Assembly (NCBI GenBank): GCA_020438105.1
Contig: JAGQVE010000014.1
Location: 11,977 to 75,976 of the forward strand
Direction: 5' to 3'
DNA: 64,000 nt
Source of the DNA: Bacteroidales bacterium
GTDB lineage: Bacteria; Bacteroidota; Bacteroidia; Bacteroidales; JAADJA01
Below are positions 10,670-45,303 of this stretch, piece after piece. The position numbers and the translations under genes are program-made. Every line of letters begins with the position of its first letter. Position 1 is the first letter of the stretch. Under the pieces are notes generated by a model. The model saw only the letters and a list, made by a program, of their open reading frames with translations, was not told the DNA's origin and searched no databases.

Positions 10670-12325
10670 CTACCTTTTATCATGCCAGTTTTGCACCTGA
10701 ATGTGTAAGGTATCGGTAAAGCCATAAACGGCTGAGCGATTGGAAATATCACCACTATTTTGATCCACTTCCACACGGTTCCAACCTCCACGGGTAACCT
10801 TGTATTCGAAGCCCTGATTTTTTCCTGTAATGGTAATATATGGCCGGCCATCGGGAAGCCTGTCGAAGATCAGGTTCCGGTCTTCGGGGTTCCAGCCATT
10901 AAAATCGGGAGCCAGGTAAATACTGGCATTTGCGGGTGTATTTGGCGGCATTTGGTCAATTACAATGGTAAGGTGATCCAATTGAAGTGGCGGAAGATCG
11001 AGCCAGTTAACAATGTCAATTAATACCGTATCTGCGTCCTGGAAAAACAGTTGCCTGTTTTCAAATTGTTGACCTAAATTATCCACTTCCACATTTGACC
11101 AGTCGCCCCGGGTAATTTTATAGTTTAAAGCATATCCCCTGCGAGGCACATTAAGATAATATCGTCCTTTAAGGTCTTGTTCAAACCTGAATTTTCGTTT
11201 GTGCGGATTCCAGCCATTGATATCTCCGGCAAGGTAAAACTCCGAATTATCGGGAGTTGTCTCGGGCAGCTCACCGAGCACAATGGTTACTTCCTGATCA
11301 TTGATATAGTTCCGGTCCTTCCATCCACCTATTGAAAGGTAAACGGTATCTTCGGCTTCGAGATTGGTAACGCGGTTGGCAATTTCAAATCCATAACGGT
11401 CAACTTCAACGGTTGACCAGTCGCCACGTGTTATTTTGTATTCGATATACTGCTTCTTCCTGGGGAAGGGATAAAAATACTGGCCGTTTTTGTTTTTCTG
11501 AAAAATATAGTTTTTATCGTCAGGTGTCCAGTTATTAAGATTACTTACCAGATAAATATAATCATTCAGGGGTGTGGTTTTAGGCATGTCCTTGATAATA
11601 AAAACAACCCGGTTTGATTTTTCTTCAGAAGGTTTATCCACCCAGCCATCTACCGATAACCGAACCGTATCTTTAACCCCAAATTGTACTTTTCTGTTGG
11701 CCACATTATTTCCAAACTCATCCGACTCACTGGTTTGAAGATTGCCCCTGGTAACTTTAAATTCGAGCTCACTAACACCAGGCATTCTGTCGATGGTCAA
11801 TGAATATTTCCCGCTTGAGCTATCCTTCCTCAGCACAGCATTTTGATCAGGATTCCAGGCATTAAAATTTCCCGCAAGAGCAATTACTTCATCTTCCGGA
11901 GTATCTTTGGGCACACTATCCAGGATAATGGTAAGCCGCGGGCAGTTAATCGGGTCCATATCATTCCAGCTTTGAATCTGGTTGGTAATGGTATCCTGTT
12001 CGCCTAAAATCAAGGTGCGGTTATCAATTTCGTATCCGCATATATCTTTTTCAACGGTAGTCCAGTCGCCACGTGTAAATTTATATTCAATGGTTCCGAA
12101 TCCCGCCGGAAGCACCACGGAATAGGATCCATCATCATTTGGGATTAACCGGAAACGTGCTTCACCCGGATCCCAGTTATTAAAATTACCGGTAATAAAA
12201 ATGGGTTGGTTTTTAGGCGAATTTTCCGGAATGGAATCCACCCTTACAACCACCTTATGACAGGATGATAGCAACAGCAACGCTGCCATTAAAGTTAAAA
12301 TAATATTTCCTCTTGATTTCATCAT
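10670..12325 (-). CDS. Lipoprotein with five tandem CBM20/48-like beta-sandwich repeats
   Basis: Lipobox LLLLSSC. There are five repeats of about 100 aa. Each has an FN(N/A/G)W(D/N/T)P motif and a K(F/V/I)TRG(D/G/N)W..VE.D motif. Its start ATG overlaps the stop of the upstream LytTR gene (ATGA). Confidence 0.75.
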   Translation of the reverse strand: MMKSRGNIILTLMAALLLLSSCHKVVVRVDSIPENSPKNQPIFITGNFNNWDPGEARFRLIPNDDGSYSVVLPAGFGTIEYKFTRGDWTTVEKDICGYEIDNRTLILGEQDTITNQIQSWNDMDPINCPRLTIILDSVPKDTPEDEVIALAGNFNAWNPDQNAVLRKDSSSGKYSLTIDRMPGVSELEFKVTRGNLQTSESDEFGNNVANRKVQFGVKDTVRLSVDGWVDKPSEEKSNRVVFIIKDMPKTTPLNDYIYLVSNLNNWTPDDKNYIFQKNKNGQYFYPFPRKKQYIEYKITRGDWSTVEVDRYGFEIANRVTNLEAEDTVYLSIGGWKDRNYINDQEVTIVLGELPETTPDNSEFYLAGDINGWNPHKRKFRFEQDLKGRYYLNVPRRGYALNYKITRGDWSNVEVDNLGQQFENRQLFFQDADTVLIDIVNWLDLPPLQLDHLTIVIDQMPPNTPANASIYLAPDFNGWNPEDRNLIFDRLPDGRPYITITGKNQGFEYKVTRGGWNRVEVDQNSGDISNRSAVYGFTDTLHIQVQNWHDKR

Positions 12326-23044: not shown

Positions 23045-23133
23045 GCCACAGATTGCACAGATTACCCAGATTAAATATTAACACTAATTTTTTTCTTTCC
23101 CAATTATCTGTGCAAATCAGTGTAATCTGTGGC
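23045..23133. repeat. Imperfect inverted repeat built from CACAGAT units (about 29-nt arms, about 30-nt spacer)
   Basis: GCCACAGATTGCACAGATTACCCAGATTA (23045-23073) faces TTATCTGTGCAAATCAGTGTAATCTGTGGC (23104-23133). It lies between the TolC stop and the DsrE-like start. Confidence 0.8.
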
Positions 23134-23140
23134 AATACTC

Positions 23141-29072: not shown

Positions 29073-29501
29073 CTAACAAGCAGGTGGGGCACGCAATGCC
29101 CGGGTAAGCGATTTTACAAAGTAGATTTTACTTACACCATCGGGTGGCTTAATCGAATGAAAAGACAAAACCATTTGTTCCGATTCATTTCCTTGCAGAA
29201 AGGCAGAATACAAATGGTTTTTTTGAAGCCTTTGGGAATGTGTTTTACTGTTAGTGTTTTTGGAATCCGTGATGATGTAAATACCATGGATCTTACAAAA
29301 TTCTGCACCCTTATTATCATGCTGATGGGATAATCCATGATCGGGATCCGCAATATTGCCATTGGCATCTTCATCTTCGCAATGCTCCGAAACAAAACAT
29401 ACCTGTTGCTCGTGGTGATGATGCGGAAACACATTGTTCAGGATCAGGACCAAAGCCGAAAGCAGTAAGACTGCAGAAATTATGTTTCGGAACTTGTACA
29501 T
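29073..29501 (-). CDS. Small membrane-anchored His/Cys-rich protein leading the czc-type operon
   Basis: ATG start and N-terminal TM helix (IISAVLLLSALVLIL). Followed by HHHHEQQVCF, EHCEDED and HGLSHQH, with C-terminal KPP...RAPPAC. Two overlapping alternative ORFs lack any such features. Confidence 0.45.
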   Translation of the reverse strand: MYKFRNIISAVLLLSALVLILNNVFPHHHHEQQVCFVSEHCEDEDANGNIADPDHGLSHQHDNKGAEFCKIHGIYIITDSKNTNSKTHSQRLQKNHLYSAFLQGNESEQMVLSFHSIKPPDGVSKIYFVKSLTRALRAPPAC

Positions 29502-29569
29502 TTGATTATTAAAACCTCAAAACTAATTTTTTTTACGGAACCCAGCAAATCTTCATCAAGTTGAAATTT

Positions 29570-29650
29570 TTAAACGGCTGTAAAGTACTTTTGTTTTATC
29601 CGCAACGACACATTCACCAATGCGATCAACACCGGCACTTCTACCAACGG
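29570..29650 (-). pseudogene. Divergent relic ACR3 C-terminus (copy C) with its own stop codon
   Basis: The minus strand translates in frame as (R)[26 protein letters not shown]. The live gene reads [30 protein letters not shown]. Copy C is flanked on the left by unique DNA. Confidence 0.75.
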
Positions 29651-29814
29651 GCGAATTACAAATTTTAAAGAAATTAGGATATCCTAAAATCTATGTTCAA
29701 TATTACTAATCCATAATAGAGTGACCAAAAAAGCGAAGGCAAAATAAAGGTGGACAACACAAATTGTTAATCGTCTGATCCCGGATTTCCAAGTCCCTGA
29801 ATATTAATCCTAAA

Positions 29815-29979
29815 TTCCCTACGGGAAAGATGACAAGGTCTGCCAGGATTTCTAATAAAATTGATGCCCTCCGGGCAATTCGTTTTTAATATTTAAGTTC
29901 AGGAAATGGTAAAATCTTCGCCGTAGGCGATATAAATTAGTAGAAAATAACATTCAGGGAATGGTTTGTCCGTAGGACA
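29815..29979 (+). repeat. Four-hairpin module, copy E1
   Basis: Hairpins with 5-bp stems and 3-nt loops sit at about 50-nt spacing. They are TTCCC-TAC-GGGAA (29815), TGCCC-TCC-GGGCA (29865), TCGCC-GTA-GGCGA (29918) and TGTCC-GTA-GGACA (29967). Confidence 0.8.
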
Positions 29980-30008
29980 TACACGTGACCTATTTTCTCA
30001 ATGAGTCC

Positions 30009-30100
30009 TCAATGTGTTTGTTTGGAAGGGAAATATTTATTTTTAAACCTCAGCGCAACATTCACCAATGCGATCAACACCGGCACTTCCACCAATGGGC
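30009..30100 (-). pseudogene. Orphan copy B of the ACR3 3' end (last ~30 codons plus stop)
   Basis: It is identical to 30458-30550 except for one synonymous change (GAG to GAA). No upstream coding body is attached. Confidence 0.85.
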
Positions 30101-30262
30101 GAATTACAAATTTTAAAGCAATTAGGATATCTTAAAATCTATGTTCAATATTACTAATCCATAATAGAGTGACCAAAAAAGCGAAGGCAAAATAAAGGTG
30201 GACAACACAAATTGTTAATCGTCTGATCCCGGATTTCCAAGGCCCTGAAAATTAATCTTTAA

Positions 30263-30428
30263 TTCCCTACGGGAAAGATGGCAAGGTCTGCCAGGATTTC
30301 TAATAAAATTGATGCCCTCCGGGCAATTCGTCTTTTATTATTTTAGTTCAGGAAATGGTAAAACCTTCGCCGTAGGCGATAAAAATTTGTTGAAAATAGC
30401 ATTCAGGGAATGGTTTGTCCGTAGGACA
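30263..30428 (+). repeat. Four-hairpin module, copy E2
   Basis: The same four hairpins occur at 30263, 30313, 30367 and 30416. Confidence 0.8.
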
Positions 30429-30457
30429 TACACGTGACCTATTTTCTGAATGGGTCC

Positions 30458-31519
30458 TCAATGTGTTTGTTTGGAAGGGAAATATTTATTTTTAAACCTC
30501 AGCGCAACATTCACCAATGCGATCAACACCGGCACCTCCACCAATGGGCCGATTACCGCCGCGAAAGCTTCACCAGAGTTGATCCCGAAAACAGCTACAG
30601 CCACTGCAATGGCCAGTTCAAAATTGTTGCTGGCCGCGGTAAAGGCAATTGTCGCCGACTTTGAATAATCGGCTCCGATCTTTTTGCCCATGAAAAAACT
30701 CACCAGGAACATGATCACAAAATAGATCACCAGCGGTATGGCAATGCGAACCACATCCAAAGGTAATTGGACAATGTATTCTCCTTTTAAAGAGAACATG
30801 ACGAGAATGGTGAAGAGCAAGGCAATCAATGTAATGGGACTGATCTTCGGGACGAACTTCGTGTGGTACCAATCCTTATTTTTGACTCTGATCAAAATAA
30901 ATCTTGTCAGGAACCCGGCGATGAAAGGAATGCCGAGATAGATGAATACACTTTCGGCAATCTGTCCCATGGTGATGTTTTTCACAACATCGGTTGTTTC
31001 AATCCCAAACCAGCCGGGCACAATGGCGATGAACACCCAGGCATATACAGCAAAAAACAACACCTGGAAAATGGAATTGAAAGCAACCAGTCCCGCGGCG
31101 TATTCGGTGTTTCCTTTGGCCAGTTCATTCCAAACAATTACCATGGCAATGCAGCGAGCCAGGCCGATCAGGATCAACCCATACATATAATGCGGATAAT
31201 CCTGCAGGAAAAGGATGGCCAATACAAACATCAACACCGGCCCGATGATCCAGTTTTGAACGAGGCTCAAACCAAGAATTTTGAAGTTTTTGAATACCAG
31301 TGGCAATTCCTCGTATTTCACTTTTGCCAGCGGCGGATACATCATCAGGATCAGCCCTATTGCGATAGGTATGTTGGTAGTGCCTACACTCAATTTGTCC
31401 CAGAAGCTTGCAATGGCCGGAAAGAAATATCCGGAAAATACCCCGATTAGCATGGCAGAAAATATCCAAATCGTTAAATAACGATCGAGGAAAGAGAGAC
31501 GTTTGGTAAGTTGTGTCAT
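30458..31519 (-). CDS. acr3: ACR3-family arsenite efflux permease
   Basis: 353 aa with about 10 TM helices. Typical ACR3 N-terminus ([13 protein letters not shown]) and conserved segments ([21 protein letters not shown]). Confidence 0.9.
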
Positions 31520-31535: not shown

Positions 31536-31607
31536 TGCGGATGCCGCAGATCGTGCGGATTTTCACTGATTTTTATCTGCGCCGATCTGCTAAATCCGCG
31601 TCATCCG
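31536..31607. repeat. Variant (GCGGAT/GCAGAT units) imperfect inverted repeat
   Basis: CGGATGCCGCAGATCGTGCGGATTTTCACTGAT (31538-31570) faces ATCTGCGCCGATCTGCTAAATCCGCGTCATCCG (31575-31607). About 22 of 33 positions are complementary. It lies between arsM and ACR3. Confidence 0.5.
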
Positions 31608-32432: not shown

Positions 32433-32544
32433 CCACAGATTTCACTGATTATCACTGATTATTTATAAAGTTTAAATTACACTGATTCAATAATTAATTA
32501 TTTCATTTTCCAATTTATCTGTGCAAATCTGTGTAATCTGTGGC
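32433..32544. repeat. Imperfect inverted repeat built from CACAGAT/CACTGAT units
   Basis: CCACAGATTTCACTGATTATCACTGATTA (32433-32461) faces TTATCTGTGCAAATCTGTGTAATCTGTGGC (32515-32544). The right arm matches the 23104-23133 arm at 29 of 30 positions. It lies between arsC and arsM. Confidence 0.8.
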
Positions 32545-32551
32545 AAATATA

Positions 32552-42221: not shown

Positions 42222-44657
42222 ATGAAGATTCACCCAGATAAAGGCTTCCACTGTCCTATGAAATGCGAAGGCAACAAAACATACGATAAACCGGGCGATT
42301 GCCCGGTGTGTGGGATGCACCTTGTCCCCGCTGATGAAAAGGAAACTCTTGATAATCACCATCATGGTGCAATGAATGATCATCATCAGAAGGATCACCA
42401 GCATAAGCAAACATCTAAGGACGATTCAGCAAAAGGGAAATATTATTGCCCCATGCGATGTGAGGGTGACAAGACATACGATAAACCCGGCGATTGCCCG
42501 GTTTGTGGGATGCACCTGAAAAAAGAAGAACGCGCAACAGCTTCAAAAACGATTTATACCTGTCCGATGCACCCGGAGGTAAAACAGGACGGACCGGGAA
42601 CCTGTCCCAAATGCGGGATGAACCTGGTACCCGAAAAAGGTGAGGAAAGCAGCGAGCAGGAAAAAGCTTATAAAAAAATGCTTAAAAAATTCTGGATTGC
42701 CTTTGCCTTTAGTGTTCCGGTGTTTATCATTTCCATGTCGGACCACATTCCCTTCCTCAACCTGGAGACTGTTGCGCCAAAAAAATTATGGAACTGGGTA
42801 GAATTCATCCTGGCATCTCCGGTTGTTTTTTATGCCGGCTGGGGATTCTTTAAAAGAGGATGGAGTTCTATACGGCGCTATTCACCCAATATGTGGACAC
42901 TGATCTCCATCGGAGTCGGAGCAGCTTACCTCTTCAGTGTTGTTTCGCTGCTGGTTCCGAGATTATTTCCGGATCAGTTTAAAGATGCAAGCGGAAACGT
43001 GCATGTTTATTTCGAAGCTGCAGCAGTAATTTTAACCCTGGTGCTGATCGGGCAGGTGATGGAGTTACGCGCACACAGCAAAACCAACTCCGCTATCAAA
43101 GCGCTGCTTGACCTGGTGCCGCCCGTTGCGAGACGCATGAAAGATGGTGAAGAAGAAGTAATTCCACTTGAAGATATTAAGGTTGGTGATATACTGCGTG
43201 TAAAACCTGGTGAAAAAATTCCGGTCGACGGAGTGGTTACGGATGGCTCTGCAACGATTGATGAAAGCATGATCACCGGAGAACCGATCCCGGTTGATAA
43301 ATCAAAAAACGATAAAGTGACCGGAGGAACCATCAATGGTAAAACAACTTTCGAAATGAAGGCCGATAAAGTGGGTAGTGATACCCTGCTTTCGCAAATC
43401 ATCGATATGGTGAATGAAGCAAGCCGAACCCGCGCACCCATTCAAAAGCTGGCGGATATCGTAGCAAAATATTTTGTCCAGATCGTGGTTGCCGTGGCCC
43501 TGATCACCTTTGCCGTTTGGGCCATCTGGGGTCCCGAACCGGCCTATGTGTATGCATTTGTCAATGCCGTTTCGGTGCTGATCATCGCCTGTCCCTGTGC
43601 CCTGGGCCTGGCTACCCCCATGTCGATCATGGTGGGGACAGGACGCGGCGCCCAATCTGGGGTGCTGGTGAAAGACTCACAAGCCATCGAATTGATGAAT
43701 AAAGTGGATACTTTGATTATTGATAAAACAGGAACCATCACCGAAGGCAAGCCCTCACTAAAATCTTTTAAGTCGTTTGGAGAATTATCAGATGAAGAAG
43801 TTCTTCGTCTGGCCGCCTCGGTCGATTCATATAGCGAACATCCCATTGCTGAAGCCATTTTTAAGGGTGCCAAAGCGAAAAAGTTGGATCTGAGCAAGAT
43901 GAAAAACTTTGAATCGGTCACAGGAAAGGGTGTGCAGGCTGAATATGAAGGGAAAAAGATCGGGCTGGGAAACCACCGCCTGCAAAAAGATTTTAATGCT
44001 TCACTGGAAGAAAAACAACGGGAACTGGTTAAAAAATGGCAATCGACCGGTCAAACCGTTATGTATCTTTTAATTGATGATCATCTTGAAGGAATCATCA
44101 GTGTTGCCGATGCAATAAAAGAAACATCGGCCAAAGCAATCAAAGATCTACAGGAGATGGGCATAAAAGTACATATGCTCACCGGCGACAACGAATTCAC
44201 AGCTAAAGCCGTAGCTGAAGAACTTCACCTCGACGGCTATCAGGCCGACTGTCTGCCCGATGACAAATACAAAAAGGTGAAAGAATTGCAGGAACATAAT
44301 CACATTGTTGCCATGGCCGGCGATGGTATCAACGATGCACCTGCACTGGAACAGGCCAATGTAGGCATTGCCATGGGAACCGGAACCGATATTGCCATGA
44401 AAAGTGCGGAGATAACCCTGGTGAAAGGTGACCTGAATGGTATTGCACGGGCAAGGGACCTAAGCCATAAGGTAATGCGGAACATCAAACAAAACCTGTT
44501 TTTTGCATTTGTCTACAATTCGGTTGGGGTGCCGATTGCTGCTGGAATCCTGTTCCCGTTTTTCGGCATCTTGCTCAGTCCGATCATTGCAGCGGCAGCT
44601 ATGAGCTTTAGTTCGGTTTCGGTGATCATAAACGCACTTCGACTAAGAAAGCAATAA
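42222..44657 (+). CDS. copA: P1B-1-type Cu(I)/Ag(I)-translocating P-type ATPase
   Basis: Motifs present: CPC (IIACPCALGLATP), DKTGTIT, GDGINDAP, YN (FVYNSVGVP) and MSFSS. The N-terminus carries three CxxC...CPxCGM modules and a His-rich spacer. The start is set at ATG 42222. Confidence 0.95.
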   Translation: MKIHPDKGFHCPMKCEGNKTYDKPGDCPVCGMHLVPADEKETLDNHHHGAMNDHHQKDHQHKQTSKDDSAKGKYYCPMRCEGDKTYDKPGDCPVCGMHLKKEERATASKTIYTCPMHPEVKQDGPGTCPKCGMNLVPEKGEESSEQEKAYKKMLKKFWIAFAFSVPVFIISMSDHIPFLNLETVAPKKLWNWVEFILASPVVFYAGWGFFKRGWSSIRRYSPNMWTLISIGVGAAYLFSVVSLLVPRLFPDQFKDASGNVHVYFEAAAVILTLVLIGQVMELRAHSKTNSAIKALLDLVPPVARRMKDGEEEVIPLEDIKVGDILRVKPGEKIPVDGVVTDGSATIDESMITGEPIPVDKSKNDKVTGGTINGKTTFEMKADKVGSDTLLSQIIDMVNEASRTRAPIQKLADIVAKYFVQIVVAVALITFAVWAIWGPEPAYVYAFVNAVSVLIIACPCALGLATPMSIMVGTGRGAQSGVLVKDSQAIELMNKVDTLIIDKTGTITEGKPSLKSFKSFGELSDEEVLRLAASVDSYSEHPIAEAIFKGAKAKKLDLSKMKNFESVTGKGVQAEYEGKKIGLGNHRLQKDFNASLEEKQRELVKKWQSTGQTVMYLLIDDHLEGIISVADAIKETSAKAIKDLQEMGIKVHMLTGDNEFTAKAVAEELHLDGYQADCLPDDKYKKVKELQEHNHIVAMAGDGINDAPALEQANVGIAMGTGTDIAMKSAEITLVKGDLNGIARARDLSHKVMRNIKQNLFFAFVYNSVGVPIAAGILFPFFGILLSPIIAAAAMSFSSVSVIINALRLRKQ

Positions 44658-44709: not shown

Positions 44710-44934
44710 ATGAATACAACATTACTCATCATTCTTGTTCTTGTCGTATCATTTGTTCTCATCTTAGTGAGTATCAAGTTATTTTCGACCCATGTTAAGT
44801 TCCGGGAATATCCCTTTTGTAAATTTGAGATAAATGATAATATGGACACAGAAGTGTGCAAAAAATGTGGATTTAATAATCATGAAGATTGTCCTCTCGA
44901 AGATGAAAGAAAGCACCATAAACCATTCAGCTAA
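44710..44934 (+). CDS. Small TM protein with Cys-rich tail (hypothetical)
   Basis: ATG start 52 nt after the ATPase stop. One TM helix (LLIILVLVVSFVLILV). Tail with C..CKKCG...CP. There is no independent support. Confidence 0.35.
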   Translation: MNTTLLIILVLVVSFVLILVSIKLFSTHVKFREYPFCKFEINDNMDTEVCKKCGFNNHEDCPLEDERKHHKPFS

Positions 44935-44970
44935 TGAGAGTTGAATTATGTTGAATAATACATGATGTTT

Positions 44971-45303
44971 TGTATTCCCCACGCGCAATCATTTTACGAT
45001 ATTTTGACATTTTCCGTTGAAATGTCTGCCTTATAGGGAATTATTCGGGCATACAATTAATTTCTATTCTGGCAACCAACATTCGCCCCAGACGATACAT
45101 TTTCATTGAAAATTTAATAGTGTTGTGTATTCCCTGCAGGAAATCATTCTTGGATCTATTGACATATTCTATTAAAATGAATGCCCTACGGGCAATTATT
45201 CAGGTATACAATTAATTTTTCGTTGGACAACCAACATTCGCTGTGCGATACATTTTAATAGAAAATATGATGTGATACACAACAGTTTGTCCGCAGGACA
45301 TAG
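44971..45303 (+). repeat. Tandem pair of four-hairpin modules (F1 degenerate, F2 intact; 155-bp period)
   Basis: TGTATTCCC starts at 44971 and 45126. F2 hairpins are TTCC-CTGCA-GGAA (45130), TGCCC-TAC-GGGCA (45182), TCGC-TGT-GCGA (45238) and TGTCC-GCA-GGACA (45288). Spacers are collinear with E1/E2 (e.g. TTCTATTAAAATGA vs TTCTAATAAAATTGA). Confidence 0.75.

Follow-up and report, generated by a model that had tools for sequence, protein, structure and literature searches.

A tandem array and a probable displaced native tail at the 3' end of an ACR3 arsenite efflux gene in an uncultured Bacteroidales species

The window analyzed here is a 64-kb stretch of one Bacteroidales genome in which an arsR-arsC-arsM-ACR3 operon lies on the minus strand, with ACR3 as its last gene and a DUF6769-czc efflux operon directly downstream. 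The 3' end of ACR3 is present three times, namely as the end of the live gene (copy A) and as two further copies downstream (B and C), separated by two cores of non-ACR3 sequence. The phenomenon belongs to a known kind: it is best taken as a real and fairly ordinary scar of gene exchange and not as a new mobile element. Its best explanation, considered probable without being secure, is displacement of the C-terminal end by an imported ACR3 allele followed by tandem amplification. In the following, contig, metagenome-assembled genome (MAG) and metagenome loci are labeled L### and proteins P####.

Three copies of the ACR3 3' end

The array and its immediate surroundings comprise the following features, each given with its position in the window, its strand and the basis of the assignment (ORF, open reading frame).

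30458 to 31519, minus strand: live ACR3 arsenite efflux gene, 353 aa (ORF call; Pfam SBF and ACR3 naming)
30458 to 30556, minus strand: copy A, the repeated 3' end of the live ACR3, 32 residues and a stop (repeat finding, blastn)
30108 to 30457, no strand: core alpha, in the unit adjoining A (unit typing)
30009 to 30107, minus strand: copy B, a non-functional duplicate of the A tail (blastn, alignment)
29660 to 30008, no strand: core beta, in the unit adjoining C (repeat finding, unit typing)
29570 to 29659, minus strand: copy C, relic of the native ACR3 tail, 29 residues and a stop (blastn, codon comparison, live C-like tail in L122)
29502 to 29569, minus strand: 68-nt spacer with a promoter-like pair, directly 3' of the relic stop codon (window sequence; pair conserved in L122 and L123)
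29073 to 29501, minus strand: DUF6769-like ORF, 142 aa, first gene of a czcB/czcA/OEP-type efflux operon (ORF call, annotation; same synteny in L122 and L123)

Direct repeats extend over 29583-29882/30031-30330 (94% identity) and 29884-30107/30333-30556 (95%) at an offset of 448/449 nt. Within the window, blastn aligns copy A (30458-30556) to copy B (30009-30107) with 97% identity, and either of them to copy C (29583-29659) with 80.5% identity (E=9e-15). The sole difference between A and B within the ORF is a GAG to GAA change in B, and the GTAATTC of the core that precedes copy B makes the frame read VIR instead of VIG. Copy C, read on the minus strand, consists of VIR, 26 further residues and a stop codon, and the next gene starts 68 nt beyond it. 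The two cores differ by 16 substitutions and one indel (17 positions, a 4.8% difference), which corresponds to about 95% identity. As a caveat, Tandem Repeats Finder gave no rows for the array region.

On the plus strand, all three junctions read ...GGGC followed by (C/G)(G/A)ATTAC. In gene orientation this is GTAATCG before GCCC in the live gene and GTAATTC before GCCC in front of B and C. The pattern GTAAT-NN-GCCC is common to the junctions at 9 of 11 positions, which would fit a microhomology join within a conserved motif as well as an att core. The original prediction, made from the sequence of the window, had described the tail copies, the single GAG to GAA change, the open frame of C, the cores of about 95% identity and the junctions, and these descriptions were borne out by repeat finding, blastn and alignment. 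Its common junction point was likewise recovered, with the correction that homology runs 5 nt further than had been stated (GTAAT in gene orientation). In annotation, B and C should be treated as relics and not as genes.

Copy C as a displaced native tail

Over codons 4-26, A and C differ synonymously in 9 codons and non-synonymously in 3. Their 14 nucleotide differences spare every second codon position, a distribution with a chance of about 0.003 by our own arithmetic. Because of this excess of synonymous changes and the intact second positions, copy C must have diverged inside a working gene; it is a once-functional tail and no decaying duplicate.

A search for relatives with a query in which the ACR3 body was fused to the C tail returned close relatives of 350 aa, two of which (L122 and L123) were examined. 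The exact C-type tail was not found among the 120 best full-length homologues, which contained close variants only, in P0266 (L122) and P0259 (L123). In L122, the live ACR3 ends in the C-like SLRLKQRYFSAV-stop, and DUF6769-czcB-czcA starts 59 nt further on without an intervening core. The C-like tail beside the same operon shows that the C-type tail is native to this synteny and makes L122 an empty site. Empty sites, with a C-like end directly on the ACR3 body, had been named as a check in the original prediction. Together with the codon pattern, the L122 site supports the proposal made there that copy C is a displaced, once-functional 3' end and that the live gene carries a different, incoming tail.

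L123 shares the gene order at about 82% nucleotide identity, and its live tail, SLRIKNKYFVSG-stop, represents a third type. The roughly 240 nt that lie 3' of this tail (in L123, 6054-6352) contain a different, long palindromic repeat rich in CTGTG/CCGTG, after which a decayed 45-nt relic of a C-type tail (NISVRSKQKYFAAV-stop) and then the same spacer are found. The junction of this relic differs from that of the window and the relic is far more degraded than copy C, which marks an independent, older tail displacement and brings the displacements in the clade to at least two. The core itself has no counterpart in L122 or L123.

The spacer downstream of copy C carries, on the minus strand, TTTG at 29546-29549 and TAGTTTTG at 29518-29525. 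The pair has the form TTTG-19/20 nt-TA(G/T)(T/A)TTTG, and both pair and spacer are kept in L122 (1301-1359) and L123 (6290-6352). The motif pair (29518-29549) fits the Bacteroidetes promoter consensus and is a candidate promoter. In the L123 relic, the last ~25 nt of the native tail are better conserved than the remainder. This hints that a regulatory overlap of the tail end with the promoter-like spacer could explain the persistence of the relic. A separate search with a 52-aa query for the C-type tail returned short fragments only. Of the three on long contigs, two are frameshifted ACR3 genes and one is a fragment beside a transposase remnant, so that none is a displaced tail.

Variation of the array among strains

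Metagenomes and MAGs assembled independently from this uncultured Bacteroidales species contain between one and three units of 448/449 nt.

One unit: L004, L010, L008
Two units: the window, L114
Three units: L108 (399-kb contig), L109 (485-kb contig)

The identical ACR3 protein, present on 13 contigs, and an identical neighboring ORF recur widely across contigs of several sample series. The flanks of the same-species contigs agree to 99.8-100%, and the differences are concentrated in the array. The junction from core to B is present in at least five independent assemblies, and the same B sequence in L001, L003, L005, L006, L108, L109, L110, L114 and L121. Short-read scaffolds are broken at the array by 100-N gaps, and this locus will break short-read assemblies in general.

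A repeat falsely duplicated or mis-joined during assembly could be argued from these breaks and from the silence of Tandem Repeats Finder, but the probability of such an artefact is negligible: the units differ at 17 positions and hence are no collapsed or duplicated identical repeat, the core-to-B junction recurs across independent assemblies from different assemblers, and three units are spanned by the 399-kb and 485-kb contigs, one of which has homopolymer errors of the long-read type. The check for an artefact proposed in the original prediction has thus come out in favor of a real array, which recurs in independent assemblies and is spanned by both long contigs. Within ACR3, L109 departs from the window by homopolymer deletions and one substitution only, a pattern typical of long-read assemblies. 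In L109 (1-2471), ACR3 is not called as a gene owing to two single-base deletions in A-runs, and one B copy has a homopolymer deletion. All of these deletions are most likely long-read consensus errors rather than real pseudogenization.

Alignment of all complete units distinguished three types: alpha (beside A), beta (beside C) and gamma, identical to beta through unit position 308 and to alpha from 418 onward. The window haplotype is A-alpha-B-beta-C and the three-unit haplotype A-alpha-B-gamma-B-beta-C. L114 has A-gamma-B-beta-C, L004 and L010 have A-beta-C, and L008 has A-gamma followed by a B/C hybrid tail, with the crossover within a 29-nt block that is identical between the tails. The gamma unit and the three-unit array are what two window-type arrays should yield when alpha and beta recombine out of register, and one homologous deletion accounts for each of the other haplotypes. 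Since all haplotypes with one, two and three units are linked by single homologous exchanges, no change in copy number needs a site-specific step, and unequal homologous crossing-over is directly documented in the aligned units. Unequal crossing-over, which the original prediction had kept as its alternative, thereby fully explains the copy-number change through the gamma recombinant, the hybrid tail of L008 and the single-exchange haplotypes.

ACR3 as a site of exchange

Comparison of contigs located two recombination breakpoints inside ACR3.

31069 to 31070, no strand: recombination breakpoint inside ACR3 in the D-type strains L092, L106 and L108 (contig comparison)
30913 to 30914, no strand: second, independent breakpoint inside ACR3, in L121 (contig comparison)

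L092, L106 and L108 equal the window from the czc operon through the array to 31069, and are then ~12-19% diverged up to ~42.0 kb. L121 is identical to the window up to 30913 and diverged above, with different upstream genes. A third allele, P0242, contains a mosaic patch at residues 128-149. With three separate points of exchange, namely the breakpoints at 31070 and 30914 and this patch, ACR3 is a proven junction for imported divergent DNA in this species, and imports of diverged ars DNA anchored inside it are common at the locus.

Several details accompany these exchanges. In L121 (1-1701), which represents a third haplotype, the array and the last 455 nt of ACR3 are shared exactly, and thioredoxin-like genes stand in place of arsM. 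The swapped segment of ~11 kb (31070-~42000) exists in versions that are ~12-19% diverged in L092/L097, L106 and L108, all of the same species. It holds the 5' part of ACR3, arsM, arsC, arsR, DUF4421 and DUF8199 ORFs, a 1280-aa resistance-nodulation-division (RND) pump and an OEP, and reaches to a CusB-like gene; the segment is bounded by one crossover within ACR3 and a second one close to where the CusB-like gene ends. A transfer of 100%-identical tracts between species, considered for a JGI contig, was rejected: longer contigs revealed the same species with an imported 11-kb upstream segment.

The core and its hairpin family

The core consists of a hairpin cluster of ~195 nt next to the stop codon and 155 nt of other sequence. 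In core alpha, the cluster, which resembles repetitive extragenic palindromic (REP) sequences, occupies 30263-30457 and unique AT-rich sequence 30108-30262. For the 155-nt half no relative was found in the collections searched. Two hairpin features of the window are listed here.

30263 to 30428, no strand: four 13-nt hairpins in core alpha at ~50 nt spacing (hairpin pattern search)
44951 to 45301, no strand: paralogous REP-like hairpin array 3' of a P-type ATPase gene and a small ORF (blastn, hairpin search)

The hairpins of the core are four perfect 13-nt copies of the form NNNCC-GTA/TAC-GGNNN. In alpha they read TTCCC-TAC-GGGAA (30263-30275), TGCCC-TCC-GGGCA (30313-30325), TCGCC-GTA-GGCGA (30367-30379) and TGTCC-GTA-GGACA (30416-30428), and the same four occur in beta at 29815-29827, 29865-29877, 29918-29930 and 29967-29979. 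None of the 17 alpha/beta differences lies within a hairpin. Rfam gave no match for the core even at E<=10 and none of relevance for the related arrays, and folding of the core on either strand was no better than that of shuffled sequence (z = -1.3 and -1.25).

The array at 44951-45301 repeats the order of the hairpin types, and 155 nt within it are duplicated in tandem (74% identity). Two of its hairpins are enclosed by the inverted arms TTCTATTAAAATG/CATTTTAATAGAA, and a small Cys-rich ORF (44710-44935) precedes it. A scan of JGI metagenomes with a two-hairpin pattern returned nine loci, including this locus, the 45-kb locus and six unrelated intergenic arrays. Dispersed hairpin arrays are present in L093, L094, L096, L098 and L099 and at the two window sites; as a control, ~800 kb of unrelated loci contain a single such hairpin.

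In L095, one of the six intergenic loci, the array adjoins a gene for a 153-aa IS200-like Y1 transposase (Pfam Y1_Tnp, E=3e-27). By its motifs DHIH, WQ and Y---Q--HH, the protein falls into subclass 1.2 as defined by Quentin et al. (2018; PMC6006769), and it has more than 7,500 homologues at E<=1e-20. Members of subclass 1.2 are low-copy and generally lack the typical terminal secondary structures of IS200, and the summary table of the 2018 survey gives no associated REP structure for this subclass (PMC6006769). Four independent tnpA contexts were compared, namely L095, L100 (Aquipluma nitroreducens)/L115, L101/L102 and L118, with tnpA and hairpins at the following positions.

L095: 1550 to 2190
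L100: 1337 to 2039
L101: 320 to 1359
L115: 4837 to 5531
L118: 4975 to 5535

The hairpins lie within ~310 nt of tnpA, on both sides in three contexts and downstream only in L095, and none were found elsewhere in the 10-kb flanks of the tnpA genes examined. Hairpins with a GTA loop stand upstream of tnpA and those with a TAC loop 8-22 and ~61-74 nt past its stop codon; L101/L102 deviate in that a single TAC hairpin stands upstream and GTA hairpins are found at a greater distance downstream. By their arrangement, the hairpins form a REP-like family linked to a gene that resembles REP-associated tyrosine transposases (RAYTs), in a REPtron-like layout. The family is a candidate REP partner for a Y1 subclass without REP structures in the survey's table. 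In L100 and in L115, a second genome of 5.4 Mb, the Y1 gene is located between the same PDDEXK_1 nuclease and gamma-glutamyltranspeptidase genes. These shared flanking genes suggest that the copy is domesticated and passed on vertically, and is not an active insertion sequence.

As to function, the array probably has no dedicated one. By analogy with REPs, the hairpins may act on the ACR3 transcript as 3' stabilizers or as a terminator.

Origin of the array

The account favored here begins with a native ACR3 whose C-type tail stopped ~60 nt short of the DUF6769-czc operon, a starting state supported by the findings above. For the first step we infer that a diverged ACR3 allele was imported together with its own 3' flank, the REP-like hairpin cluster and the ~155 nt beyond it. 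The import would have replaced the resident gene body, one of its ends recombining through homologous DNA in or upstream of ACR3 and the other forming an illegitimate join at GTAAT(T/C)(C/G)GCCC, a patchy microhomology within VIGPLVEVP, the motif of ACR3 that is conserved best. Such an event would resemble homology-facilitated illegitimate recombination. The product would be body-A-core-C, with the native tail stranded just upstream of the promoter-like spacer of the next operon. In the second, well-supported step, the A and C tails and later the cores served as direct repeats; unequal crossing-over made B, and the array has since expanded and contracted between one and three units. Two parts of this account are conjectural, namely that the first join was illegitimate and which way the DNA was transferred.

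Several points weigh against it. No donor locus, in which an A-type ACR3 and the core run into unrelated DNA, was found in the GTDB scan, the metagenome scan or the protein look-ups, and what suggests an illegitimate join is solely the 9/11 microhomology. Copy B is A-like right up to GCCC, so that the exchange that made it would have been resolved at the extreme 5' edge of homology and not in the 29-nt identical block, and this edge needs an extension of heteroduplex with patchy repair or a later gene conversion. The GAA of B is the state of C, which fits patchy repair as well as an element's own sequence. Since alpha and beta differ by 4.8% and the flanks are 99.8-100% identical among strains, the first duplication would be old or one of the cores imported. 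Finally, genome coverage amounted to 64 kb, and a recombinase or a Y1 transposase may be encoded elsewhere in the genome.

The main competing idea is that the first unit arose by a site-specific or a Y1-mediated event; even when the two are taken together, such an origin appears unlikely. In its site-specific form, a non-autonomous integrative element made of the A-type tail and the core would have inserted at least once, and perhaps repeatedly, at the GTAATNNGCCC core site in the 3' end of ACR3, by means of a recombinase encoded elsewhere. It is the rival that fares best, and is nonetheless rather improbable. It would account for the GTAAT..GCCC common to both kinds of junction, for an ORF restored by the inserted tail with the native tail displaced intact, and for a B that is a full A-type copy from the junction on, as a second insertion would give. 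Among the 80 closest ACR3 loci, from GTDB genomes at 72-83% identity, neither a second tail (0/80) nor the core (0/80) was found, and in the GTDB loci, the JGI metagenome pattern scan and the relatives, unit and core occur at this locus only and in no other species. No recombinase or integrase is present in the 20 window ORFs scanned against Pfam or among the annotated ars and efflux genes, and the unit has no ORF of at least 40 aa on the gene strand. Inspection of the junction by eye revealed no dyad symmetry and no feature resembling an integron attC (GTTRRRY), dif or attP. Moreover, the tail of L123 was displaced with another junction and with other DNA in between, and homologous exchange explains every copy-number variant. 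The reading as a site-specific mini-element lacks support. A small element that integrated site-specifically twice in tandem, as put forward by the original prediction, does not agree with a unit seen at no other locus and 80 ACR3 loci without a second tail, and the linked integrase and further copies of the core that it had proposed to look for were absent from the window ORFs scanned and, outside this locus, from the collections searched, respectively.

Another history supposes that a second ars operon was inserted beside the resident one, giving two tandem ACR3 genes, and that a deletion at the GTAAT microhomology removed the downstream body and left its tail. It would arrive at the same final arrangement, including the 5-nt microhomology where the core meets C, and ars operons are clearly exchanged at the locus. 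It invokes two events where one suffices, however, and neither the 80 related loci nor the contigs of the same species showed two ACR3 genes in tandem, which leaves it with a small probability.

More speculative is the proposal that the unit is a tail-swapping mini-cassette, REP-bearing and mobilized in trans by a subclass-1.2 Y1 transposase or an unlinked recombinase that targets the VIGPLVEVP-coding motif. We regard it as very doubtful; if true, the cassette would carry a replacement tail so that the pump survives insertion, and the L123 relic would be an older hit at the same hot spot.

Hardly any weight can be given to a mobilization of the REP-like cluster itself as single-stranded DNA by an IS200-like Y1 (RAYT-like) transposase, in which read-through to a surrogate ATTAC site would capture the ACR3 tail and re-insertion 3' of ATTAC would build tandem units. 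In its favor, Y1 transposase genes are flanked by hairpins of the same family as those of the core, each of the three unit boundaries ends on the plus strand in ...ATTAC and resembles an IS608-type target, and a perfect 14-nt palindrome (TTAGGATATCCTAA) lies in core beta, 14 nt from the boundary. However, the ATTAC of the boundary is dictated by the conserved codons GTA-ATC, a palindrome is found near one unit end only, the nearest REP hairpin is ~130-155 nt from either boundary and none stands near the proposed right end. No Y1 gene is present within the 64-kb window, which has two hairpin arrays, duplicated gene ends occur in no other hairpin array examined, and the recombinant units reveal homologous exchange at work here.

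Under displacement by an imported allele, the locus would be a clean natural record of resistance-operon exchange, with ACR3 repeatedly serving as a homologous anchor. The illegitimate end of one import would have left the native tail stranded, and the direct repeats so formed would now drive the change in copy number.

Other repeats in the window

A family of short intergenic repeats rich in ATCTGTG/CACTGAT is present at 23096-23135, 32507-32546, 31544-31574 and 32433-32463, between ars genes and beside the czc operon; its members resemble the palindromic repeat of the L123 spacer. At 42252-42322 and 42447-42517, a CxxC heavy-metal-binding module is duplicated at the N-terminus of a P-type ATPase. 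A 318-nt periodic repeat extends over 10736-12091 inside a 551-aa ORF that resembles carbohydrate-binding modules (CBM/X25-like).

Comparison with known systems

Integrative elements that regenerate the 3' end of their target are exemplified by e14 at icd and by islands at tRNA and tmRNA genes. As in these elements, the live gene ends in incoming sequence and a diverged native end lies beyond the insert; the short sequence common to both junctions may be a further parallel. The insert at ACR3, however, measures 449 nt, has no integrase seen in the scanned ORFs, no cargo and no other site found, and its copy-number variants are products of homologous recombination. Variable number tandem repeats (VNTRs) and other tandem duplications generated by unequal crossing-over share with the array the one to three copies among strains, the recombinant units and the hybrid end repeat (L008), but the founding repeats here are two diverged alleles of one gene's tail, joined by gene exchange.

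The core recalls REPs, bacterial interspersed mosaic elements (BIMEs) and the REPIN (REP doublets forming hairpins)-RAYT system (Bertels and Rainey, 2011; Quentin et al., 2018, PMC6006769): its GC-stemmed palindromes stand just 3' of a stop codon, in both orientations and ~50 nt apart, and in other Bacteroidota the same hairpin family flanks single-copy IS200-like Y1 genes at conserved chromosomal positions. In contrast to REPs and BIMEs, the stems are only 5 bp long with a fixed GTA/TAC loop, and GTAG lies within the hairpin and not at its foot. Unlike in the REPIN-RAYT system, the linked transposase belongs to subclass 1.2, without REP structures in the survey table (PMC6006769).

Displaced 3' ends are known from rhs and type VI secretion system (T6SS) effector loci, for which homology-facilitated illegitimate recombination (HFIR) has been proposed (Jackson et al., 2009; Kirchberger et al., 2017, PMC5361080). 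As in the C-terminal displacement at rhs, contact-dependent inhibition (CDI) and T6SS loci, recombination is anchored in a conserved 5' part, a new 3' end and the flank that belongs to it arrive with the imported allele, the former 3' end comes to lie further downstream and starts inside a conserved motif, and the event is recurrent in related lineages (here the window and L123). The ACR3 locus differs from these systems in that the gene encodes a transporter and not a polymorphic toxin, no immunity gene and no evident selection for tail diversity accompany it, only the last ~29 codons are displaced and the displaced block was later amplified in tandem.

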